The notes beneath the pieces are model-generated. The model was given only the letters and a program-made list of their open reading frames with translations, was not told where the DNA came from and ran no database searches. Shown here in pieces: positions 9,808-57,473 of a stretch of DNA of 64,000 nucleotides. Made by a program: the position numbers and the translations under genes. Position 1 is the stretch's first letter, and each line of letters opens with the position of its first letter. The stretch is from a virus (Duplodnaviria > Caudoviricetes): IMG/VR virus record IMGVR_UViG_3300003320_000853. One strand, given 5' to 3'.

Positions 9808-10443
9808 ATGACTTCCTACGCCATTGGTGGACAGAGCTCGGGTGACTTCAAGGAGACCTCTGCGCGCGTCCAGCTTCTCAACGTCGTCACCCGGAATTCC
9901 CAGGGTGTCCTGACGCCGGACGCGTTCTCGCAGGCGAATCCCCCCGTCGTCACCGGCCAGAAGTCCTCCACCCTGAACGCCATCGGCGGCAAGCTCGGCG
10001 TCCTCGGGGGCAGCATCGCCTTCACCCGATACGACTTCGGCAACGGCTTCCATGGGGGGCCGCTCAAGGTCGGTGGCAACTACGACGCTCGGGTGAAGCC
10101 TCTCGGCTTCTTCCTGAACGACTCGCTCGGGAACGCCTTCGAGAACACCCCCGGTGTCGCTTCGACGCGCGGTCCGTACGTGTGCGGCGTGGGTTCCACC
10201 GTCGGCCTCTCGATCTACGAGACGAAGAAGCAGGTCGCGACGAATCCCGGTGACGCGATCACCTGGACGGCGGGCGATCCGGTCTACGCCTCGGTCAACG
10301 GCTACGCCACGAACGTCGTCGGTGACGCTTACGAGTTCAACGTCTCGGGGCAGAACGACGTGAAGTTCGTGACCCTCATGGGCATCGTGAAGGTCGCCCC
10401 CGACGCCAATTCGTCGCTCCTCGTGATCGACACCCGGATCTGA
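9808..10443 (+). CDS. Capsid cement/decoration protein
   Basis: AGGAG RBS; PLGFFLND...YET...WTAGDPVYASVNG...MGIVKVAP beta-tulip-like pattern; immediately before the MCP. Confidence 0.65.
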   Translation: MTSYAIGGQSSGDFKETSARVQLLNVVTRNSQGVLTPDAFSQANPPVVTGQKSSTLNAIGGKLGVLGGSIAFTRYDFGNGFHGGPLKVGGNYDARVKPLGFFLNDSLGNAFENTPGVASTRGPYVCGVGSTVGLSIYETKKQVATNPGDAITWTAGDPVYASVNGYATNVVGDAYEFNVSGQNDVKFVTLMGIVKVAPDANSSLLVIDTRI

Positions 10444-10462
10444 GAGAGGAGCAGAGGACACC

Positions 10463-11344
10463 ATGAATCAGCAGGTTTCCAACGAGCTGAAGCAGCAAAT
10501 CATCAGCGAGTACATCAAGACGGCTTCCGGCCGAGCGAAGCTCGCTGCGTCGATGATCCAGCCGCTCCGGCTGCGTCGCGACTACACCGCGGTGGGTCGC
10601 AAGACCTTCCTCGTGGAGCAGCTCCCGGACGGCGCGCTCCCGATCTACGACAAGGATCCGGACGTCACGGCATTCGTCGTCGGCGAGGAGGGCCAGAACA
10701 TCCTCGCGATCCAGAAGCCGCGCCGCGTGATCTTCCCCCTGTTCGAGATCGCCTCGAACCCGGAAATCCCGCTCACTCAGATCAAGGAGCGTCGCTTCGA
10801 TCTCATCGAGCGCGCTCAGGATCTCGCCAAGGCGCAGATCCAGGCTGCGGAGGACGAGCGGGTCTTCACCGTCCTCGACTCGATCGCCGTCTCGGGCTTC
10901 GACACCCTCCCCGGGCAGACGAACCCCGACGTCGCCGTGGTCGCCCCGATCTCGCCGGCCGTCCTCGCGGACGCCTTCGCGGAGATCGAGCGCCACGACC
11001 TCCGGGTCGCGCGCATCTACATGAACGCCGTGGACTATGCGGACATCCGCAAGTTCGGGCGTGACATCCTGGACATCGAGAGCCAGGCGACCCTCCTCAA
11101 GACCGGCCTCCAGGCCGTTCTGTGGGGTGCGCAGATCATCACGAGCCGCCTCGTCCCCGTCGGCTTCGTCTACATCTGCGCCGAGCCCGAGAACTTCGGC
11201 CGCTTCCCGGTCCGCACCGAGCTCACGGTGCTCTCGGCCGACGACCCGAAGGCCCGCACCATCGGCTTCTCGTGCTTCCAAAATGTCGGCATTGGGGCAT
11301 TCAACCCCAAGGCGCTGACGAGGGTCGTGGTTCAGCGCTTCTAG
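10463..11344 (+). CDS. Major capsid protein (HK97 fold, 293 aa)
   Basis: GRAKLAASMIQPLRLRRDY...FEIASNPEIPL...IQAAEDERVF...IYMNAVDYADIRKFG...LWGAQIITSRLVP; very strong codon bias; followed by a terminator. Confidence 0.85.
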   Translation: MNQQVSNELKQQIISEYIKTASGRAKLAASMIQPLRLRRDYTAVGRKTFLVEQLPDGALPIYDKDPDVTAFVVGEEGQNILAIQKPRRVIFPLFEIASNPEIPLTQIKERRFDLIERAQDLAKAQIQAAEDERVFTVLDSIAVSGFDTLPGQTNPDVAVVAPISPAVLADAFAEIERHDLRVARIYMNAVDYADIRKFGRDILDIESQATLLKTGLQAVLWGAQIITSRLVPVGFVYICAEPENFGRFPVRTELTVLSADDPKARTIGFSCFQNVGIGAFNPKALTRVVVQRF

Positions 11345-11380
11345 CCTGAATCCGGCCTGAAATCAGGCCCAAAGGCGATG

Positions 11381-11420
11381 GAGGCCCTGCTCGGGAAACC
11401 GGGTGGGGCCTCTCGTTTTT
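11381..11420 (+). terminator. Rho-independent terminator after MCP
   Basis: GAGGCCCTGCTCGG-GAAA-CCGGGTGGGGCCTC stem-loop followed by TCGTTTTT. Confidence 0.8.
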
Positions 11421-11460
11421 AGTGCTTGTAAAGAAGATGGGCCGTCCCGCCATGGCGAGA

Positions 11461-11467
11461 CGGTGTA
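11461..11467 (+). promoter_or_regulatory. Early-type promoter motif CGGTGTA
   Basis: Upstream of the YodC-like gene. Confidence 0.45.
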
Positions 11468-11504
11468 GATGACGGTAGCTGATAGTCTTTGCATCGGAGA
11501 ATGT

Positions 11505-11699
11505 ATGGGTGAGATCACGATCGGATCGAAGGTCAGATTGAAGAGTGGGATCGGGCCAACGATGATCGCAGACGGAGAGTCTGCTGGGGGCCCGGGCGAA
11601 GCCATCTCCTTGATGGCTTGCTACTGGTTCACGTCGGACATGACGTACCAGAGGGCGGACTTCCGGCTCGACCATCTGGAGAAAGATCCCAACCCCTGA
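11505..11699 (+). CDS. YodC/DUF2158-family small protein
   Basis: GSKVRLKSGIGPTM...CYWF pattern; GGAG RBS. Confidence 0.7.
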   Translation: MGEITIGSKVRLKSGIGPTMIADGESAGGPGEAISLMACYWFTSDMTYQRADFRLDHLEKDPNP

Positions 11700-11717
11700 C
11701 CAGGGGTTCTGAACGGC

Positions 11718-11758
11718 AAGGGGCCGTCTCCGAGAGGGGTCGGCCCCTTCGCTTTTTG
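11718..11758 (+). terminator. Rho-independent terminator
   Basis: AAGGGGCCG...CGGCCCCTT stem followed by CGCTTTTT. Confidence 0.75.
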
Positions 11759-11802
11759 TCTGTTTGACCCCCACATGTGTGGATGAGCCGGTAGACTTCC
11801 TC

Positions 11803-12699
11803 ATGAAGTGGGCACGCTTCCCTTCGCTTCCGAGAATGTTTCACGTGCCCGAGAGCGTGAGGGATACCAAGCCGCTCACTCCTCCTGGCACCGACCTATC
11901 CATCTGGCAATGGGATGATGAGCGGGGGCGTCCGACCGCCATCGTCTTCCAGGGGGATTCAAACAAGCCTTTGTGGAAGTACACCTTCGGAAACGAGGCC
12001 CAGCGTCATCATGAGATCGTCGAGGCCGCTCGGATCCGCAAAGAGCAGCTCAAGGAGGAAACGATGACCCTCAACGATCGGGTCTTGGCGCGGTTCAAGC
12101 AGTCTCTCGACCTTGGGAAGACGTTCTTCACCGAGAGCCTCAAGTTCCACCACTGGCGCGGGCACCTCACCATCACGGACATCACGAACGCCGGGAAGCG
12201 GGGGAAGAAGGTTCGCGAGCTGGTGGTGACGCCGAACACACGGGGTGGGGACGCCCGAGCCGAGGAGGTGATCAAGCACCTCGTTCCGACGCTCACGCAC
12301 ATGAACTACGACCAGGCGAAGGGCAAGATGGAAGACCTTCAGGAGGAACTCGACGACAACGGCAAGCCCGTCGTCGAGCTCTTCGAGAGGATCCTCCGTG
12401 GGGTCGACGTCGAGCCTCCCGGCACGAAGATCGAGCTGACCAACAAGTTCGAGAATGGGACCATCCTGCGCATCGAGTCGAGCCCCCACGACTTCCATCT
12501 CACGAACAGCGCTCTGTTCGGCGCCGCTGGGGAGAAGCCGTCCTTCCGTCAGGACACCGGCTACTGGCCTCGGTCGAAGAAGGACGGCATCCTGTTCTAT
12601 GCCTGGCTCAAGGAAAACATGGCCAAGGCGTCCAAAATGACGATCCAGGACTTCCAGAAGGTCTGGGATCAGCTCGGCGTCACGTACAACCAGCACTGA
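11803..12699 (+). CDS. Two-module hypothetical protein; second module starts at 12064 with the RVLARF tag
   Basis: CCGGTAGACT 11 nt before ATG 11803; internal AAGGAGG RBS before ATG 12064 (MTLNDRVLARFKQS). Confidence 0.6.
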   Translation: MKWARFPSLPRMFHVPESVRDTKPLTPPGTDLSIWQWDDERGRPTAIVFQGDSNKPLWKYTFGNEAQRHHEIVEAARIRKEQLKEETMTLNDRVLARFKQSLDLGKTFFTESLKFHHWRGHLTITDITNAGKRGKKVRELVVTPNTRGGDARAEEVIKHLVPTLTHMNYDQAKGKMEDLQEELDDNGKPVVELFERILRGVDVEPPGTKIELTNKFENGTILRIESSPHDFHLTNSALFGAAGEKPSFRQDTGYWPRSKKDGILFYAWLKENMAKASKMTIQDFQKVWDQLGVTYNQH

Positions 12700-12702
12700 C
12701 GT

Positions 12703-12713
12703 CGGTGTAGACT
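12703..12713 (+). promoter_or_regulatory. Early-type leaderless promoter CGGTG-TAGACT
   Basis: -10 hexamer starts 12 nt before ATG 12720. Confidence 0.6.
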
Positions 12714-12719
12714 TCGGGC

Positions 12720-13055
12720 ATGCCCCTGACCGAAGAAGCTCAAGCGCTGATCGAGCGATCCCTCCAAACCCGAGAGGGTCAGGTTGCACTCATGGTTGCC
12801 ATGGGGGACGCGATCCAACGGTTTGTGGACTGGGGGAACGTAATGCCCGGGACGCGGCGGGATCTAGAAATCACCCGCGCCCGCCTTGAGGCCCGTCGTG
12901 TCGATGTGATGGGCTTCGGGGTGTGGCGCCACGGGCGCACCCTCGGCCAGCTTTTCGAGGCCATGAGACTTTTGAAGGCGCCGCCGATCGGACCCTGCTT
13001 CATCGAGCCCGCGCCGACCGCCTGGGAACATCTCCTGGCAGATGACCCGGTTTGA
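12720..13055 (+). CDS. Hypothetical protein with C-terminal PTAWEHLLADD motif
   Basis: Own promoter motif; C-terminal motif shared with ORF 39685. Confidence 0.6.
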   Translation: MPLTEEAQALIERSLQTREGQVALMVAMGDAIQRFVDWGNVMPGTRRDLEITRARLEARRVDVMGFGVWRHGRTLGQLFEAMRLLKAPPIGPCFIEPAPTAWEHLLADDPV

Positions 13056-13457
13056 CTATCGGAACATCCCGGGCGGCGTCCGGATCCCGGCCTTCCGCAG
13101 GATCTCTTCGCACCATGTGAGCGCCTCGGAGCGCTGGTCGAACGCCTTCACGTTCGTCGGCATCGGCGCCACCATGAGGAGCGTGGAGAGCACGAAGCGT
13201 ACGACGGCGCCGTCGACTACGACGGCGTTTCCGAGCCACGTGTTCCGCAACTCCGGCATCATCTTGATCCCATCAGAAAAGGGGGCGACGATTGCCCGAG
13301 GGGATGCCTTCAGCCGCGACGCATCCGTGAGCACCACGAAGACTCCCGACCGAGATGCCTGCCTGAACCCCTCGAAGAGAGGAGGGAGGTCGACGGGGCC
13401 GATCTCCTCGGGGAGATCCAGGGTCATAAGTGGGTGAGTGAGGGTGATTGTAATCAT
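13056..13457 (-). CDS. STAS/SEC14-like (SpoIIAA-like) protein
   Basis: FVVLTDASRL...NAVVVDGAVVRFVLSTL...VKAFDQRSEALTW pattern; ATGA overlap with the terpene synthase stop. Confidence 0.7.
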   Translation of the reverse strand: MITITLTHPLMTLDLPEEIGPVDLPPLFEGFRQASRSGVFVVLTDASRLKASPRAIVAPFSDGIKMMPELRNTWLGNAVVVDGAVVRFVLSTLLMVAPMPTNVKAFDQRSEALTWCEEILRKAGIRTPPGMFR

Positions 13458-14494
13458 GTCCTGTCCGTGAACCTAGGTTCGATGACGCGGTTGTTCACGA
13501 CCACCTTGTAGGCCGTGTATCGCGGGGATTGCGCCTCCCAGAGGGAGAACCCAAGGGACGCGTAACGGACATCCTGCAACCACCGGGCGATGAAAGGATC
13601 GTCGCGCTCCGACCAGGATCCCAAGGATCCGGCGAGGCGATCGAATTCCAGGAGCGTGGTGTTGTGGGTGAGGATAAGGTACTCGAAGGCATCCTCCACG
13701 CTCATCGCACGTTCGTGCATGAGCGTGGAGGTCAGGTTGAGGTGGCCCTCGGTGAAGTCCTTGCCAAAGCTCAGAAGATCGTTGCCGATCCCGACGATCT
13801 TGTTGGACAGAGTCTTGAGCCGCATGACCGTAGGGTGGAGGTGGAAGGAACGCGGAAGCTCGAAGTCATACACGTCTTCGAGCAAGTAGACGGTTGCGTA
13901 CATCCCGATGGTCGCGATCCTGAGATCCATCTGCCGCGTGAAGCTCGGGAACACCTTGTTCTCCTGAGCATTCCTCACCGCGAGGGCTTCCTGACGTGCG
14001 GCCGTGCTCCACGTCTCCATGCACTGGCAGACGGCCCGAAGCCACAGCTCGCTCCTCCCCCCAGAGAACTCCTTGAGGAGCTGCCACCAACCGAGATCGA
14101 AACGAGACATGTCCTTCGGAGGCTCGGCCTTGAGGATATCGCTGGGGTCGATCCTCCAACGATTGTCCCGGCTTTCTACCTCAACGTCGTCCCACAGGAG
14201 CCACAGGGTGAGATGTTTTGCGACCCGGATGGTCTTGTCGAGAGGCAGTGTGGGGAACGGAAAGCCTACATAGCCCTCGATGTCGAACCGACGGGCACGG
14301 GTCAGTTCCTCGGGTGTACACCCGAGGGTCTCCAACCACTGGAGCACGTGACGCCTCGCCTGGATGGCGAGGGGATTCTTCGGGATCGGCGATCTCCAGT
14401 GCGGTGGCACACGGAACACGAACTTCTCGCCCGTATTTGTAGGGTAGCCCCTAGCGGCGTCCGCGGAGACGACAAGGAAATCGCTTTCGGTCAT
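13454..14494 (-). CDS. Class I terpene synthase/cyclase (346 aa)
   Basis: Asp-rich WDDVEVE, effector RIATIG, NSE-type NDLLSFGKD, C-terminal WEAQSPRY; GGAGG RBS before ATG 14494. Confidence 0.85.
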   Translation of the reverse strand: MTESDFLVVSADAARGYPTNTGEKFVFRVPPHWRSPIPKNPLAIQARRHVLQWLETLGCTPEELTRARRFDIEGYVGFPFPTLPLDKTIRVAKHLTLWLLWDDVEVESRDNRWRIDPSDILKAEPPKDMSRFDLGWWQLLKEFSGGRSELWLRAVCQCMETWSTAARQEALAVRNAQENKVFPSFTRQMDLRIATIGMYATVYLLEDVYDFELPRSFHLHPTVMRLKTLSNKIVGIGNDLLSFGKDFTEGHLNLTSTLMHERAMSVEDAFEYLILTHNTTLLEFDRLAGSLGSWSERDDPFIARWLQDVRYASLGFSLWEAQSPRYTAYKVVVNNRVIEPRFTDRT

Positions 14495-14506
14495 GACCCC
14501 TCCATC

Positions 14507-14524
14507 CTGGTGTAGGAACACCAG
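14507..14524. promoter_or_regulatory. Palindromic divergent promoter/operator CTGGTGT-AGGA-ACACCAG
   Basis: Perfect 7-bp inverted repeat in the 30-bp gap between the terpene synthase and ung; contains TGGTGTA 12 nt before the ung ATG. Confidence 0.5.
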
Positions 14525-15190
14525 ATGCACGCCTCATGGAAGAGGGTCCTCCAAGATGAATTTCGATCCCCATCCTTCCAGGATCTCATCAAGTTCGTCG
14601 AGAGAGAGCGTTCCACCTACACGGTTTTTCCTCCTGTGGGTGAGGTCTTCACCGCGTTCGACCTAACGCCATTCGAGGATGTCAAGGTCGTCATCCTCGG
14701 TCAGGACCCCTATCATGGGGTCGGGCAGGCGCATGGTCTGAGCTTCTCCGTCAAGCCCGGCGTCTTGCTACCGCCCTCCCTCGTCAACATCTTCACGGAG
14801 GCCCGGTCTGATGGGGTTCTGACCGGCACGCCTGGGGGATGCCTCAAGCCGTGGGCTGAGCAGGGGGTCTTCCTCCTGAACTCGGTGCTCACGGTTCGAT
14901 CAGGGGTGGCGGGATCCCATCAGTACCGTGGGTGGGAGGCGTTCACGAACGCCGTCATCCGGAAGCTCTCCGAGCGGGAGAAGCCGATGGTCTTCATCCT
15001 GTGGGGGAGCTATGCGAGGGACAAGAAGCCTCTCATCGATCTCGACCGGCACACGGTCATCGAGTCGGCTCACCCGTCCCCTATGTCGGCCGACCGGGGA
15101 TTCTTCGAGAGCAGGCCATTCTCCAGGGCCAATGCAGCCTTGGTCGCCGCGGGACAGACGCCGATCGACTGGCAGCTCCCTCTGGTCTAA
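14525..15190 (+). CDS. ung: Uracil-DNA glycosylase (family 1)
   Basis: VVILGQDPYHG, GLSFS, PPSLVNI, GVFLLNSVLTV, HPSP motifs. Confidence 0.95.
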   Translation: MHASWKRVLQDEFRSPSFQDLIKFVERERSTYTVFPPVGEVFTAFDLTPFEDVKVVILGQDPYHGVGQAHGLSFSVKPGVLLPPSLVNIFTEARSDGVLTGTPGGCLKPWAEQGVFLLNSVLTVRSGVAGSHQYRGWEAFTNAVIRKLSEREKPMVFILWGSYARDKKPLIDLDRHTVIESAHPSPMSADRGFFESRPFSRANAALVAAGQTPIDWQLPLV

Positions 15191-15465
15191 TCGAGACCGA
15201 AGGAGAGCTGCTCATCCTCTTCCACGGCGGGCTCGCCCTTCTTCCCCTTGCCCTTCTTGAACTTGGGCGCCTTCCGGCGTTGTTCCTCGAAGAATGCTTG
15301 GAAGAGGGTCTTCCACTGGTCGCGGGGGATCCCGACCTTGACCACAGCGAAGACCGAGATCCGCCAGGCGCGGGGAACGGCGCGGGCGACCTCCCGGCCG
15401 AGCTCGGCTGGATCGGTCACCCCGTCGTCGATCTTCTTCTGGAGGAGGGTGGGGAGGTTGTCCAC
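15187..15465 (-). CDS. Hypothetical protein (92 aa)
   Basis: Packed ORF in a small minus-strand cluster; ends EQLSFGLD. Confidence 0.55.
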   Translation of the reverse strand: MDNLPTLLQKKIDDGVTDPAELGREVARAVPRAWRISVFAVVKVGIPRDQWKTLFQAFFEEQRRKAPKFKKGKGKKGEPAVEEDEQLSFGLD

Positions 15466-15467
15466 GA

Positions 15468-15665
15468 TCAGTACCCAGTGCGACGCCAGATGTGGCCGCC
15501 ACGAACCGTGGCAACGAGGAGCTCGCCGACGTAGACGTTGACCTGATCCCAGTCGTCCGAAGCGCGGACCGCGTTGACGATCGCCTGGTCGATGTTCTGC
15601 GGGGTGTGGTCGAAGTTGTAGGAGCGGTTGCCGAGGAGGCCGGTGGTCCAGATCGTCGTGCTCAT
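15468..15665 (-). CDS. Hypothetical protein (65 aa)
   Basis: AGGAGGAG RBS; good codon bias. Confidence 0.6.
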   Translation of the reverse strand: MSTTIWTTGLLGNRSYNFDHTPQNIDQAIVNAVRASDDWDQVNVYVGELLVATVRGGHIWRRTGY

Positions 15666-15682
15666 GCTCCTCCTACAGAGGA

Positions 15683-15716
15683 GAGGGCCGAGCGATCAAC
15701 TCGGCCCTCCGTTTTT
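15683..15716 (+). terminator. Rho-independent terminator (possibly bidirectional)
   Basis: GAGGGCCGAG-CGATCAA-CTCGGCCCTC followed by CGTTTTT. Confidence 0.65.
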
Positions 15717-16052
15717 CTAGCGGCCGGTGATCTTCTCGAACCCGTTGGCGCTTTTCATGGCGAGGGCGAGCGCCTGAGCGTAGGCCGCGAGCTTGGCCAC
15801 GACCTCGTCATGACGGCGGAGGACGCGCGACCAGTCCTCACGGCATTCCGCCGATGCCTCGTAGATGCCAGGGTTGTCCTGGCGGGAGAAGCGCTGGAAG
15901 TGCGCCGTCTTGTCGTCGGTGGCGGCGGCCAGCTCCAAGAGAAGAGCCATCGCCTCGTCGTGCGTCCATGGCACCGAATTGAGCGAACGGACCTCGCCAC
16001 CGAGGCGATCGAGAAGGATGCGGATATCGGACAGGGTCTTCTGGGGATCCAT
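15717..16052 (-). CDS. Hypothetical helical protein (111 aa)
   Basis: CCGTGTAGAAGGA motif upstream of the ATG. Confidence 0.6.
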   Translation of the reverse strand: MDPQKTLSDIRILLDRLGGEVRSLNSVPWTHDEAMALLLELAAATDDKTAHFQRFSRQDNPGIYEASAECREDWSRVLRRHDEVVAKLAAYAQALALAMKSANGFEKITGR

Positions 16053-16089
16053 GGGTCCTTCTACACGGAACCCGGCACCTTGATCAACC

Positions 16090-16103
16090 TAACTCACTTA
16101 TCC
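16090..16103 (+). promoter_or_regulatory. Putative late-promoter motif
   Basis: TAACTCACTTATCC upstream of ORF 16147. Confidence 0.5.
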
Positions 16104-16146
16104 GTTTGCTCTCTGTGGAGACCTTTGTCCCGCGCAGGAGCAGACG

Positions 16147-17406
16147 ATGCCTCAGCAAGATCAGATCCGATACCAGCACGGCCAGCCCATCCACTTCATC
16201 ACGACCAGGAACTTCACGTTCGGCAACACGCCGAACGGCCAGCCTCTCGCTCTGTCGAAGGGCACCGATGTCTTCTTCGACGGGACCACGGCGGAGGTTG
16301 CCGGGGCGCGGTACGCGATCCCGCAGCTCCGGGGGGCCATTCGCACGGGGTGGCTCGTCCAGGCACAGCGGTACGACGAGAACGACACCTCGGCGGAGCG
16401 GCCGAGGGCGGCGGGCATCGAGGTTCGGCATGCGGCGGAGGGAGGCAATCCTCTCCGGCCGAACCGGGTTCGATTCGAGCGTGCGACGGAGGAGGACATC
16501 GACGAGCGTGAGGTGGGCAACGTCGACAGCCATGCGGCGTCGACGAGGGCTCGGAACACCCGGTGGCGGCCCGGCCAGCGTCCGCCCGCGGATGTGGAGC
16601 CCGGGCGTCGCTTCACCGGCTCCGTGTGGGAGGTCGAGGCCCAGGATGGGGTCGAGGTGCGGCGGGGCTTCGCCACGGCGCGTTCGGCGGGTGAGGATGC
16701 TCGGAGCATCCCGACTACGCAGCTCAGCCGGGCGGGTGAGGCCATCGCTCGGGCGAACAACGTTCAGATCGAGCCGGGGGAAGGCATCACCGAGGAGGAG
16801 ATGCTGGAGAGGATGCACCCGGAGGATCGCGAGCTGTACCTCGCCGACAAGGAGGCGTACCGTTCTCGGTACGCCGACGTGGCCCCGGCTCCTCGGGTGA
16901 TGCGAGCCGATCCTTCGGCGAACCGCGTCATCGCTCGGGTCGCAAACCACGGGGCCGAGACCCGGGAGGGGATGACGAGCCGGGTCACGACGGGTGGGGG
17001 GACAGAGGTCTTCGACGTTTCGGGGCTTGATTCGGCGCCGGCTCGGCAGGACACCATCAGCCAGGAGGGTCTCACCTTCCGGACCACGAACGGTCCGCAG
17101 CGGGCATTCGAGAAGCCTTCCAGCCCCGACGACAAGAGGGTCGCTCCGGCCGAGGTCGTCCGCACCGTGGGGCAGTCTGTCACCATGCGTGAGGCTCCGG
17201 CCGAGATCCGCAAGATGGTCGCCAAGACCGTGTGCGCGGACTTCCCCGACAACTATGATTTCTCGGGCTCTGTGCGGAAGCGGCTCGCCCGTCTCCAGGC
17301 GGACTTCGAGGATCGCCACGACGTTCTCCGTGCCGTCTTCGCGGCTGAGGGCGACGAGATGAAGTCGCTCCTCGTCGCCGAGTTCCCGCAAGCTTTCGCG
17401 CAGTGA
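16147..17406 (+). CDS. Hypothetical late protein (419 aa)
   Basis: AGGAG RBS, codon bias, late motif upstream. Confidence 0.7.
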   Translation: MPQQDQIRYQHGQPIHFITTRNFTFGNTPNGQPLALSKGTDVFFDGTTAEVAGARYAIPQLRGAIRTGWLVQAQRYDENDTSAERPRAAGIEVRHAAEGGNPLRPNRVRFERATEEDIDEREVGNVDSHAASTRARNTRWRPGQRPPADVEPGRRFTGSVWEVEAQDGVEVRRGFATARSAGEDARSIPTTQLSRAGEAIARANNVQIEPGEGITEEEMLERMHPEDRELYLADKEAYRSRYADVAPAPRVMRADPSANRVIARVANHGAETREGMTSRVTTGGGTEVFDVSGLDSAPARQDTISQEGLTFRTTNGPQRAFEKPSSPDDKRVAPAEVVRTVGQSVTMREAPAEIRKMVAKTVCADFPDNYDFSGSVRKRLARLQADFEDRHDVLRAVFAAEGDEMKSLLVAEFPQAFAQ

Positions 17407-38632: not shown

Positions 38633-38656
38633 ACCTTGAAATCAAAGGCAAATCAG

Positions 38657-39676
38657 ATGGCACAAGATCGCACGGGATACAAGCATGGTGTCGGCATCGA
38701 CATCGGGACGATGAATCTCGTCTCCGCTCGCATGGTGGGCGAGGACGTCCGCACGAAGCGGATGCGGGACGCCTTCATCGACCTCGATCCGGAGGTGAAG
38801 AAGCAGCTCCGGCTCTCGAAGGTCTCCTACGTCGAGCAGAACGGGTCTCTTCTCGTTCTCGGGGATTCGGCGATGGTGATGGCGAACCTCTTCAAGCGGG
38901 AGGTTCGCCGGCCGCTTTCGCGTGGGGTGATCTCGGCCGGCGAGCTGGAGGCCCAGCAGATCCTCTCCCTGCTCATCTACCACGTGCTCGAAGATCCTAC
39001 GGTGCCGGACGAGCATTGCTTCTACTCCGTGCCGGCGGTGCCGATCGACGATCCGGATCAGGATGTCGTCTACCACACGGAAATCTTCCGCAAGATCATT
39101 GCCGAGCACGGCTACCGCCCACATCCGATGAACGAGGCGATGGCGATCATCTACAGCCAGTGCGTCGCCGAACAGTTCTCGGGTCTCGCGATCTCGTTTG
39201 GCTCGGGGATGGCGAACGTGGCCCTCGCCTATCAGACGGTGAAAGGGATGGACTTCGCGCTCTCCCGGGGCGGCGACTGGATCGATGCCCACTCGGCCAA
39301 GGCGACCGGCTCGACGGCGGCCCGGATGTGCGCGATCAAGGAGAAGGGCGTCAATCTCGCGAAGCCGAACGGGCGCGAGGAGGAGGCCATCACGCTCTAC
39401 ATCCGGACGTTGATCCGCTACTGCCTGGAGAACATCGCCGCCCAGTTCCGGAGGGTGCAGAGCACCCTCAGCCTCCAGGAGCCGATCCCCTTCGTGGTCT
39501 CGGGCGGTACGAGTCTCGCCGGGGGTTTCCTCGACGCCTTCAAGGAAGAGTTCGAGACCGTCAAGAAGAAGGGCTTCCCGATTCAGATCAGTGGGATCCG
39601 GACGGCGAAGAACCCCATGACGGCCGTGGCCGAGGGCCTCCTCGTGCTCGCCATGGAAGAGCACGCCGACCAGTAG
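38657..39676 (+). CDS. Actin-like ATPase (MreB/ParM-type fold)
   Basis: GIDIGTMN (phosphate 1), RRPLSRGVI, NEAMA, SFGSGMAN, GGDWID, VVSGGTS, AVAEG. Confidence 0.8.
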   Translation: MAQDRTGYKHGVGIDIGTMNLVSARMVGEDVRTKRMRDAFIDLDPEVKKQLRLSKVSYVEQNGSLLVLGDSAMVMANLFKREVRRPLSRGVISAGELEAQQILSLLIYHVLEDPTVPDEHCFYSVPAVPIDDPDQDVVYHTEIFRKIIAEHGYRPHPMNEAMAIIYSQCVAEQFSGLAISFGSGMANVALAYQTVKGMDFALSRGGDWIDAHSAKATGSTAARMCAIKEKGVNLAKPNGREEEAITLYIRTLIRYCLENIAAQFRRVQSTLSLQEPIPFVVSGGTSLAGGFLDAFKEEFETVKKKGFPIQISGIRTAKNPMTAVAEGLLVLAMEEHADQ

Positions 39677-46749: not shown

Positions 46750-47913
46750 TTGGTGTTCACCCCTCTTGGGGTGCCTCTGCCGGCCCCGTCTTGCAGCAAT
46801 TTGCGGCACGATAAGGTGGTGTACCTCTTGGGGGTGCTCGCCACGACGCTCTCCCCCGAGGAGATCCTTCCCTGGACGAAGGATCCTAGAATCCCTCCAG
46901 CCGAAGCGCTCGCCCTCCACCTGTACTATGCCGCCGGCCGGAAGCAGGTAGAGATCGCGGAGTTCTTCGGGATGACGCAGGCTGCTGTCTCCTACCGCAT
47001 CCAGCGGGCATTGAGTCGGATCGAGTTCATCCTCTCCCTTCCGGAGGTCCAGGAGAAGGATCTTCGTCGGGATCTCCCGACGGTTCTTACCGATCCGGTC
47101 CATGTAGAGATCCTCGTAGGTGTCTGGAAAACGTCCTGCCAGAGTGCGGTAGCTGATCAGCTCGGGCTCAGCCAGGGGAAGGTGAGGCACCGCTTCTTCA
47201 AGGCCGTCAAGGTGCTCCAGACAACCCCCGGCATGGATCTGTACCGGCAGCTCTTCGAGCGCATCGGAGAGGGATGGAATATGTTCAGGGAGGTCAAGCT
47301 CCCACAATGGGATCGCCCCCTTCCCGGTGTACAGCTTGGGGAGAACCCCAACCCTCAAGGTACTATGCCCCCGCGTGCCAAACCCACGTCTCCGAGCGTG
47401 CCGATCCGCACCTTCGCTACGTTCGATCAGCGTATCCGGACCCTGTTGAAGGATGGGGAGGAGCGGACCGTCGACGCTCACTACGAGGCCCTCGACCTCA
47501 AGAACCACCCGTCGCTCTGGGCGACGGAAGAGATCACCAAGTTCGAGGACATCGTCGCCTCTCACAACTGGTGGACGCGGCACCACTGGAGGGTCTTCGA
47601 GCGGACGGCAGCTCTCTTCTCTAAGGACGAAATCAAGCAGATCGGTCTTCAGGCGGCGGGTCGGATCGCATCGCAGCCCGAGGAGAGGCGGACTTCGCTC
47701 AAGGAACGGGTGCTCGCATACACCAGTACCGAGGGCAAACCGGCGACGCCCCAGTATGTGACGCAGCTCATCCAGAAGATGCGGAAGAAGCCTCCGAGGA
47801 AGCGGGTCAGCGATCTGACTCGCAAGGAGGCCCTGGAGTACATCCGCGTCCTCCAGGCGCGGCTCCGGCGTGCGGGCATCTCTGTCCCGACCGTCAGGGA
47901 GACCTTCGCATGA
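46750..47913 (+). CDS. Sigma-region-4-like double-HTH protein fused in frame to a second module (ATG 47365)
   Basis: LYYAAGRKQVEIAEFFGMTQAAVSYRIQRA and QSAVADQLGLSQGKVRHRF; start uncertain. Confidence 0.6.
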   Translation: MVFTPLGVPLPAPSCSNLRHDKVVYLLGVLATTLSPEEILPWTKDPRIPPAEALALHLYYAAGRKQVEIAEFFGMTQAAVSYRIQRALSRIEFILSLPEVQEKDLRRDLPTVLTDPVHVEILVGVWKTSCQSAVADQLGLSQGKVRHRFFKAVKVLQTTPGMDLYRQLFERIGEGWNMFREVKLPQWDRPLPGVQLGENPNPQGTMPPRAKPTSPSVPIRTFATFDQRIRTLLKDGEERTVDAHYEALDLKNHPSLWATEEITKFEDIVASHNWWTRHHWRVFERTAALFSKDEIKQIGLQAAGRIASQPEERRTSLKERVLAYTSTEGKPATPQYVTQLIQKMRKKPPRKRVSDLTRKEALEYIRVLQARLRRAGISVPTVRETFA

Positions 47914-56302: not shown

Positions 56303-56475
56303 GTATTCCAGTACCTCCGCCACAAGGCATCCGTCTCGCCAGGAGGGTCGTCTTCGCGGGGACGCTTCACGAGAACCCCGATCGCGGGAGGGCGCCTCCG
56401 GTGCTCTGTGCAGGAGAGACAATCCTGTTCGCACCCGCAATGCGAACACATCGACCCTGTGTAGTGCTTCTCCAT
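56299..56475 (-). CDS. Small Cys-rich protein (58 aa)
   Basis: TGATG coupling to the kinase; CSHCGC...CLSC. Confidence 0.45.
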   Translation of the reverse strand: MEKHYTGSMCSHCGCEQDCLSCTEHRRRPPAIGVLVKRPREDDPPGETDALWRRYWNT

Positions 56476-57473
56476 CACGACCCCGAGGCGGGCCGCGTGC
56501 CCGGACGGATCTGTCCGAACGCCTTCTCCCGGATGGCCTTGAAGGCGTCGAAGAGGTCGCCCTGGGGCCGGTCGAGGGGGTGCTTCGCAGTGAGCTTCTT
56601 GATGAAGCGGCACATGGGCTCCGGAACGGTCGTCGGCACCTCGACCTTCTGGACGGCCTTCATGCCCCCGCCGAGGCCGTAGATCATGCACTGGCCGAGG
56701 GAGTAGTAGTCGGACGCGGGGATGAGAGGCTTGAGCGCGAGCTGCTCCGGCGGGGCGAAGAGCTCCGTGTACCCGTTGCCTCTCGTCTTGGACGTGGGCT
56801 TGACCTGCGACAGGCCGAAGTCGACGAGAACGACTCCGTGATGCTCCCACTGGAGGATGATGTTCTGCGGCTTGAGATCCCCATGGATCACGCCGAAGCG
56901 GTGGAGAAAGAGCAGGGCGTTGAGCAGGCGCTCCGTGATCCATCCCATGTCGTAGGGATCGATGCGGCCCTTCGTTTCGACCTCCTGCTCCAGGGTGGGG
57001 CCCTCGATGTACGACATGACGAGGGCCAGGGAGCCATCGTCGAGCCGGATCATGTCCCGCATCGACGGGAGCGCGAAATGCCGCAACGTTCCGAGGATCC
57101 GGGCCTCCTGGATGAGGACGGCATCGTGGGCAGCCGAGACCGAGGAGCAGTGCTTGATGCACACGATCTCCTTGGTGATGAGGTGCTCGGCGCGGAAGGT
57201 GGTTCCGAAGCCGCCTTCGGCGATCTGGGAGATGATCCGGTAGTTGCCGATGATGTTGTCGCCCTTGGGTGCCCGCTTCTTGTCGTGCTCGGCACGCTTG
57301 GTCGGATCCCCCAGGATGTCGAAGGCGTCCTTCAACGTCTTGAAGCGGGCCATGGATGGGTCCTGCCCGAAGACGAGCGTCTCGTAGGCTGCCTTGATCA
57401 CCTCGGCGCTGGCGCGGGGTGAGACCTCCAGGAGAGCGTAGGGATCGGGGATGGGCGTGGCGGTCTTCGGCAT
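56475..57473 (-). CDS. J-domain (degenerate) / Hanks-type Ser/Thr protein kinase fusion
   Basis: DPYALLEVSPRASAEVIKAAY...AFDILGDPTKRAEHD; IAEGGFG, VCIK, HGDLKPQN, DFG, APPE, SDYYSLG. Confidence 0.9.
   Translation of the reverse strand: MPKTATPIPDPYALLEVSPRASAEVIKAAYETLVFGQDPSMARFKTLKDAFDILGDPTKRAEHDKKRAPKGDNIIGNYRIISQIAEGGFGTTFRAEHLITKEIVCIKHCSSVSAAHDAVLIQEARILGTLRHFALPSMRDMIRLDDGSLALVMSYIEGPTLEQEVETKGRIDPYDMGWITERLLNALLFLHRFGVIHGDLKPQNIILQWEHHGVVLVDFGLSQVKPTSKTRGNGYTELFAPPEQLALKPLIPASDYYSLGQCMIYGLGGGMKAVQKVEVPTTVPEPMCRFIKKLTAKHPLDRPQGDLFDAFKAIREKAFGQIRPGTRPASGS

Follow-up and report, generated by a model that had tools for sequence, protein, structure and literature searches.

Bacterial class I sesquiterpene synthases, among them the 10-epi-cubebol synthase of Sorangium cellulosum (PDB 7zrn) and a 1-epi-cubenol synthase (PDB 9hq2), are alpha-helical enzymes of about 350 amino acids (aa) that carry an Asp-rich motif, an Arg sensor, a metal-binding triad, and an RY pair in a set order and at a set spacing. 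Phages carry host-derived metabolic genes. Here we describe a gene pair on the minus strand of the tailed-phage record IMGVR_UViG_3300003320_000853 (Duplodnaviria; Caudoviricetes), at positions 13056–14494 of a 64,000-nucleotide stretch that we analyzed as a whole and call the window. The first gene encodes a terpene synthase with the same fold, motifs, order, and spacing as the bacterial enzymes, and the second encodes a small protein of the SpoIIAA/STAS fold. In contrast to the bacterial synthases, to which it is about 20% identical, the phage enzyme has a triad that ends in Asp instead of Glu, has extra terminal beta strands in its predicted model, and is phage-borne. In the explanation that we favor and hold to be probable, a huge phage carries in an accessory hotspot a cassette of a synthase and its coupled STAS-fold partner, captured from a Polyangia-type myxobacterium and kept under purifying selection.

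Virus-encoded terpene synthases have precedents in eukaryotic systems. Enzymes from giant viruses have been characterized (Jung et al., JACS 2023; Park et al., Biochemistry 2025; both as cited in PMC13524828) and are also mentioned in a passage of PMC11665903. They resemble the phage enzyme in being encoded by a virus and in presumably using host prenyl diphosphates, but they belong to Nucleocytoviricota of eukaryotes and not to a tailed bacteriophage. Family 2 encapsulins that carry a terpene cyclase as cargo likewise have the cyclase gene near an HK97-fold shell gene (PMC8346489; NF041167), whereas the phage locus has a true phage capsid gene and no targeting domain.

The closest counterparts of the pair are uncharacterized myxobacterial operons of a synthase and a STAS/SEC14-domain protein, found in Minicystis rosea (CP016211, L085), in a Byssovorax metagenome-assembled genome (MAG; L087), and in Phaselicystis flava (UniRef). 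These operons have the gene order and tight coupling of the phage pair, with synthases 53–62% and partners 43–56% identical to those of the phage. They differ in lying in varied chromosomal contexts of 65–69% GC, and their proteins have variable N- and C-terminal tails, which are missing from the phage proteins, the most diverged members. We found no account in the literature of a terpene synthase that has a STAS-fold protein as its dedicated partner. The original prediction for this DNA, made from the letters and their open reading frames (ORFs), had proposed a phage class I terpene synthase coupled to a STAS/SEC14-like protein. To this we add that the pair appears to be a bacterial module captured whole, that it is a one-off among hundreds of relatives, and that giant-virus synthases are known.

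Identity of the Synthase

The synthase gene occupies 13454–14494 on the minus strand, stop codon included, and encodes 346 aa (coding region 13457–14494, ATG at 14494, stop codon at 13454–13456). An alternative GTG start at 14530 would lengthen the protein by 12 residues to 358 aa. The ATG is preferred because a strong ribosome-binding site precedes it, a GGAGG Shine-Dalgarno-like sequence read from the sequence at 14499–14503 (minus strand), 4 nt upstream, and because homologues align from there.

The protein scores 78.9 bits (E = 5.5e-22) with Pfam PF19086 (Terpene_syn_C_2), where the cutoff is 23.7, a match far outside chance. An AlphaFold (AF2) model built from 41 homologues has a predicted local distance difference test score (pLDDT) of 95.1 and a predicted template modeling (TM) score (pTM) of 0.93, and a Foldseek search of the PDB with this model returned more than 300 matches at E ≤ 0.001. 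All of the top matches listed are class I terpene synthases (TM 0.67–0.84), the best of them bacterial sesquiterpene synthases (TM 0.7–0.8, E 1e-12), and the named ones include 1-epi-cubenol, 10-epi-cubebol, and T-muurolol synthases. Searching the PDB by sequence gave 29 sequences, of which every one with E < 0.001 is a terpene synthase or an engineered variant of one. In that search the NDxxSxxK(D/E) and RY motifs align to those of 10-epi-cubebol synthase and presilphiperfolanol synthase, with NDLLSFGKD placed on NDIYSLRKE of 7zrn and RY placed on the RY of 7zrn and 8h6q. The hidden Markov model search and the structure prediction that had been put forward as checks on the original prediction thus both give a terpene synthase, and the fold on which that prediction depended, that of a class I terpene cyclase, is modeled with confidence.

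The four motif strings on which the earlier assignment drew were all found in the protein (LLWDDVEVE, RIATIG, NDLLSFGKD, and WEAQSPRY), and their conservation could be followed in a family alignment of 41 mostly myxobacterial homologues. The Asp-rich motif is D102-D103-V-E-V-E107, in which D103 is invariant and D102 and E107 are at least 90% conserved; the metal-binding triad is N238-D-L-L-S242-F-G-K-D246, in which D246 is invariant. Overall, D102, D103, E107, R192, N238, D239, S242, K245, D246, R325, and Y326 are all invariant or at least 90% conserved in the family. The diphosphate-sensor residue R192 lies exactly 46 residues before N238, the textbook spacing between Arg sensor and triad for bacterial class I synthases, and R325-Y326 lies 87 residues after N238. 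It had been suggested that two departures from the usual motifs, DDxxxE and KD in place of KE, may mean an unusual product. This found no support: the residues concerned are invariant or nearly so in the 41 homologues, so the variants belong to the whole family and not to the phage alone, and nothing in them points to an unusual product. Judged by its sequence and model, the enzyme is apparently functional. Its weak NCBIfam matches are all to sesquiterpene synthases, and farnesyl diphosphate (FPP) is for that reason the most likely substrate.

A route to the product through the sorangiadenosine cluster was considered, by way of a lead in Vitiosangium cumulatum (PMC7321100), and was dropped since Sora9 and the homologue in question, P0013, are different enzymes. 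Sora9 has 333 aa and a DDxxxD motif (PMC7321100), and P0013 has 356 aa and a DDVHVE motif. Separately, besides its all-alpha catalytic domain the synthase model shows short beta strands near both termini, at residues 7–10, 26–28, and 329–343 (window positions 13466–14476), and a C-terminal segment, KVVxxGRVIEP, is conserved in the family. This conserved C-terminal segment might serve as a docking surface.

The STAS-Fold Partner and Its Coupling to the Synthase

The partner gene (13056–13457, minus strand) encodes 133 aa. Its start codon lies inside the synthase stop codon, at the junction CATGATT, giving an ATGA overlap at 13454–13457 (minus strand) of the kind expected for translational coupling. 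Two ORFs joined by such an overlap had been predicted here, and both the coordinates and the junction agree. The pair abuts its neighbors with gaps of 0 and 30 bp. A scan for consensus promoters and terminators around the pair found none on the minus strand, and PHROGs holds no family for the synthase or the partner.

The AF2 model of the partner has a pLDDT of 86. The VIA structural search, which is independent of Foldseek, matched it to 2q3l (DUF3478, SpoIIAA-like) with Z 10.9, to the STAS structure 4xs5 with Z 10.4, to RsbS with Z 9.1, and to SpoIIAA with Z 8.5, and Foldseek agrees on a SpoIIAA/STAS fold with a probability of 1.00. The fold is thus that of the SpoIIAA-like DUF3478 proteins (PF11964; 2q3l, 2ook) and of the STAS antagonists SpoIIAA, RsbS, and RsbV, and across such structures the comparison yields Z 8–11 and a root-mean-square deviation of 2.7–3.4 Å over about 110 residues at 10–17% identity. 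The phage protein scores 18.1 bits against PF11964, under the cutoff of 25, and 24 of the 28 members of the partner family match it (E ≤ 0.01, best 5.5e-6). The STAS half of the earlier description, a small STAS/SEC14-like protein, is accordingly borne out by AF2, VIA, and Foldseek. Sec14-type structures (Sfh5, SPF, neurofibromin Sec14, alpha-TTP, and CRALBP) match the core only, with Z 6.3–8.0, a range that the structural-search tool describes as possibly just a common arrangement. A full SEC14/CRAL-TRIO domain has about 250 aa, a helical lid, and a hydrophobic pocket, compared with the 133 aa of the phage protein; SPF is a squalene-binding protein. We put forward lipid binding by the partner as a hypothesis from these model comparisons.

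The partner family is small, with 27 clusters among 5.8 billion proteins, nearly all of 136 aa, and its structural neighbors in the ESM Atlas are mostly from Myxococcota. Unlike the STAS antagonists, the partner has no anti-sigma kinase or sigma-factor partner nearby and is instead fixed downstream of a terpene synthase. General scans of the neighboring genes in the phage and bacterial loci found no HATPase-type kinase. Prediction of a complex of synthase and partner gave a score of 0.00 and a mark of 0.32, which is evidence neither way.

Origin of the Gene Pair

Searches found 102 homologues of the synthase, at most 62% identical to it, and those with names are from myxobacteria. The 25 closest loci in species-representative genomes (at least 38% identity) are all from Myxococcota except for one from Chromobacterium. 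A tree against myxobacterial cyclases had been proposed along with the original prediction; in the maximum-likelihood tree that we built, the phage enzyme falls at the base of a Polyangiaceae-rich clade (Shimodaira–Hasegawa-like approximate likelihood ratio test support of 86), which also contains most of the known loci that bear a partner.

The partner gene lies directly downstream of the synthase gene in Minicystis, in Byssovorax, in two MAGs, and at the bacterial loci L002, L123, and L124, and the last three have the same 4-bp gene overlap as the phage. The phage partner is 48% identical to that of L002. At least 12 further bacterial pairs are implied by synthase and partner matches on contigs of equal length in bp. 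The bacterial pair loci have the partner in common and share no other neighbors, from which it follows that the phage took a self-contained two-gene module whole. We count the bacterial origin as shown, and sequence comparison points to capture of the intact pair from a Polyangia-type myxobacterial operon.

A Hypervariable Hotspot in a Phage-G-Like Huge Phage

The source contig has 376,986 bp, and genes in the window encode a portal protein, a head-maturation protease, a major head protein, a tail-related DUF2460 protein, and a UvrD-type helicase. The major capsid protein gene (10463–11344, plus strand; phrog_2522 major head protein, 177 bits) forms the conserved flank to the left of the pair. 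Its product is 90–98% identical to proteins in 558 IMG/VR stretches on contigs of up to 529 kb; relatives measure 400–530 kb, and one 407-kb record that shares the capsid protein has direct terminal repeats. By capsid protein, the nearest deposited phages are an uncultured 485-kb phage (82%), the Tunturiibacter phage Tunturi_5 (48%), and Bacillus phage G (39%). The setting is a phage-G-like huge phage, as the portal, protease, capsid, and helicase genes and the capsid protein common to 558 stretches agree in showing. The pair had been described as lying 2 kb downstream of the capsid gene; the capsid gene is indeed close by, but the true gap is 1.7 kb and the pair is on the opposite strand.

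The proximity of an HK97-type capsid gene, 1.7 kb away, and a weak NCBIfam match of the synthase to the family 2 encapsulin cargo terpene cyclase (51.4 bits) raise the idea that the synthase is the cargo of a nearby HK97-fold shell, as in an encapsulin, or is packaged in the virion. The NF041167 score is far under the 400-bit cutoff of that family and covers residues 201–326, the generic C-terminal half of the fold. In addition, the shell gene is a true phage capsid gene that stands with portal and protease genes, and the synthase gene runs on the other strand and does not occur in relatives that have this capsid gene. We reject the synthase as an encapsulin cargo and consider this explanation as a whole very improbable.

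The right flank is a conserved phage gene at 16147–17406 (plus strand), with homologues in 51 fetched loci and 36–57% identity in phage loci. Comparison of the interval with relatives marks the space between the capsid gene and this gene (11345–16146) as a hypervariable hotspot for accessory genes: it measures 4803 bp here, 167–7366 bp (median 2331) in 50 related phage loci, and about 1.1 kb in the closest relatives, L003 and L005. The hotspot here also holds, divergent from the synthase gene, a gene of the uracil-DNA glycosylase family (14525–15190, plus strand; PF03167, 54.2 bits), and a uracil-DNA glycosylase lies within the hotspot in 14 of the 50 relatives.

A search for the pair in related phage contigs, likewise proposed earlier, found it in none of them. 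Synthase and partner are absent from all of the 80 best related loci (L003–L082), and PF19086 matched none of nine related full huge-phage records, while Minicystis rosea as a positive control gave six matches. There is no synthase homologue among 50,697 deposited phages; with none found in the literature either, the earlier statement that no characterized phage terpene cyclase is known stands. A variable site, conserved flanks, absence from relatives, and cellular homologues identify the pair as phage accessory (“moron” or auxiliary) genes.

Among 2.9 million viral contigs, only two distant matches to the synthase were found (L083 and L084, 24–26% identity), on two contigs from the same sample that measure 314 and 847 kb and have 40% GC. 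The match in L083 (IMGVR_UViG_3300031825_000002) is a 545-aa ORF at 9833–11467 (plus strand; PF19086, 45.5 bits) on the 314-kb contig. CheckV puts that contig at about 30% complete, implying a genome near 1 Mb, and for this reason the two contigs fit a giant virus better than a phage and are probably from giant viruses. Capsid families of nucleocytoplasmic large DNA viruses (NCLDV) and of the HK97 type had no match in the record of L083.

Assembly Integrity, Age, and Constraint

The closest homologues of the pair are bacterial and some related IMG/VR records are labeled “provirus,” as would be seen if bacterial DNA had been misjoined to a phage contig or if the segment were chromosome beside a prophage. 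Several observations contradict such a chimera or host contamination. A Logan contig that was assembled independently, from run SRR1926113, spans both junctions and agrees at 100% identity over 16,873 bp, which weighs against the concern, raised with the original prediction, that the segment is a chimeric host insertion. Both flanks are phage genes conserved in relatives, and the genes of the pair lie tight against their immediate neighbors. Composition also follows the phage and not the donors: the two genes have 60.0% and 63.4% GC, against a mean of 64.3% (standard deviation 2.2) for phage genes and 65–69% for bacterial homologues, and the closest bacterial sequence is only 62% identical. 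We regard an assembly artifact as extremely unlikely.

Both ORFs are intact. The synthase retains 85 of the 89 columns that are at least 90% conserved in the family, and the four changes are conservative. The phage-like GC content together with these retained residues leads us to regard the capture as old and the gene as maintained, and the GC content, the conserved columns, and the Logan contig jointly speak against the pair being a chimera, a recent contaminant, or a decaying pseudogene.

Proposed Function and Competing Explanations

If the favored explanation is correct, the synthase would bind three Mg2+ ions during infection through D102/D103/E107 and N238/S242/D246, would sense diphosphate through R192 and R325/Y326, and would ionize a host-supplied prenyl diphosphate, most likely FPP, and turn it by cyclization into a sesquiterpene. 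The partner, with its STAS fold, would be produced in concert with the synthase and would act on it or with it, either as a regulator or as a binder of the hydrophobic substrate or product. The phage could gain from the terpene product itself or from the drain on the host FPP pool.

Host supply of the substrate enters this proposal because no prenyl-diphosphate synthase was found in the 64-kb window of the 377-kb contig: tblastx searches with four Minicystis polyprenyl synthase loci gave short, scattered matches of at most 35 bits. The same result would suit a form of metabolic sabotage, in which the benefit to the phage is the drain of host FPP, weakening envelope or exopolysaccharide synthesis or blocking development, since the substrate must then come from the host. 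Undecaprenyl phosphate and quinones are made from FPP. A simple sink needs no partner, though, and the dedicated STAS-fold protein has been kept, which suggests a native function oriented to the product; sabotage as the whole benefit seems to us distinctly unlikely.

It is also rather unlikely, in our estimation, that the phage makes a terpenoid in infection as an active chemical, with the STAS-fold protein gating or chaperoning the synthase. Such a terpenoid might be a volatile or membrane-active sesquiterpene that changes how the infected population, neighboring cells, or soil animals behave, or one that blocks competing phages.

Several observations weigh against the explanation of a maintained, functional cassette. 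Some concern the enzyme and its substrate: besides the prenyl-diphosphate synthase that was not found in the window, the third triad residue is Asp where the usual one is Glu (a family-wide and conservative variant), and no member of the clade with a known product was found. Others concern the host. The donor lineage of the cassette, taken alone, suggests a host in Myxococcota, but a search of 401 Myxococcota genomes did not turn up the capsid protein, and the nearest relative in culture, Tunturi_5, infects Tunturiibacter, an acidobacterium. The remaining ones concern constraint and distribution. The phage synthase has a branch of 0.66 in the tree, compared with a median of 0.19, and the partner, the most diverged of its family, retains 46 of 57 conserved columns, with 11 changed; on sequence grounds the long branch and the partner's divergence could reflect relaxed constraint. 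The pair is, moreover, a singleton, present in one phage among hundreds of relatives, which also fits a dispensable passenger.

These last points would be expected of a neutral passenger, brought into a permissive hotspot by illegitimate recombination, of no benefit, and on its way to loss, whether or not the enzyme works. The pair is confined to this one phage when the 80 related loci and the nine full records are compared with it, the contents of the hotspot change quickly, and the two proteins have the long branch and the strong divergence just described. Against neutrality, both ORFs are intact and tightly packed, the synthase has kept its 85 conserved residues and all catalytic motifs despite about 40% overall divergence, and the GC content of the pair has drifted to the phage level. 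The intact ORFs, retained residues, and phage-level GC together imply long residence under constraint, and a neutral passenger is accordingly a minority possibility in our assessment. The explanation that we prefer remains a captured cassette maintained by selection.

Other Features of the Window

The two conserved genes that flank the hotspot evolve differently. In loci whose capsid protein is 90–98% identical, the conserved gene at 16147–17406 is just 36–57% identical, a difference that points to unusually strong constraint on the capsid protein in a widespread huge-phage lineage. Next to the pair, a 111-aa ORF at 12720–13055 (plus strand) lies tail to tail with the STAS gene and has the C-terminal end PTAWEHLLADDPV. 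The synthase and STAS proteins have neither a C-terminal PTAWEHLLADDPV nor an N-terminal RVxxRF.

Elsewhere in the window, a 346-aa protein encoded at 38636–39676 (plus strand) matches the actin-like Pfam family Volactin (PF25216) over its full length at 237.9 bits and looks like an actin-type cytoskeletal protein of a huge phage. A 387-aa protein at 46750–47913 (plus strand) carries, close to the N-terminus, a sigma-70 region 4 domain and may be a phage sigma-like or transcription factor. In a 332-aa protein at 56475–57473 (minus strand), a DnaJ J-domain (residues 10–64) is fused to a Ser/Thr protein kinase domain (residues 78–269, 110 bits). The sequence TTGATC occurs 47 times in the whole window compared with 31 expected, a count reached in 0 of 100 shuffles; the minus strand carries 38 of these copies, and none lies upstream of the synthase gene. 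No tRNAs were found in the 64-kb window.

Implications

The ecological weight of the finding is limited, given that the pair occurs only once, in a hotspot whose content changes fast, and its general importance may be small. Terpenoid production by the phage is nonetheless directly testable through one or two genes, since the synthase is intact and well conserved. The bacterial synthase and STAS module from which the pair appears to derive is itself uncharacterized and could reveal new cyclase regulation or product handling. If the phage does use a terpenoid as an active chemical, this would be the first case of a bacteriophage using a small-molecule terpenoid pathway, and the synthase and STAS protein together would be the first two-component terpene synthase system to be described.

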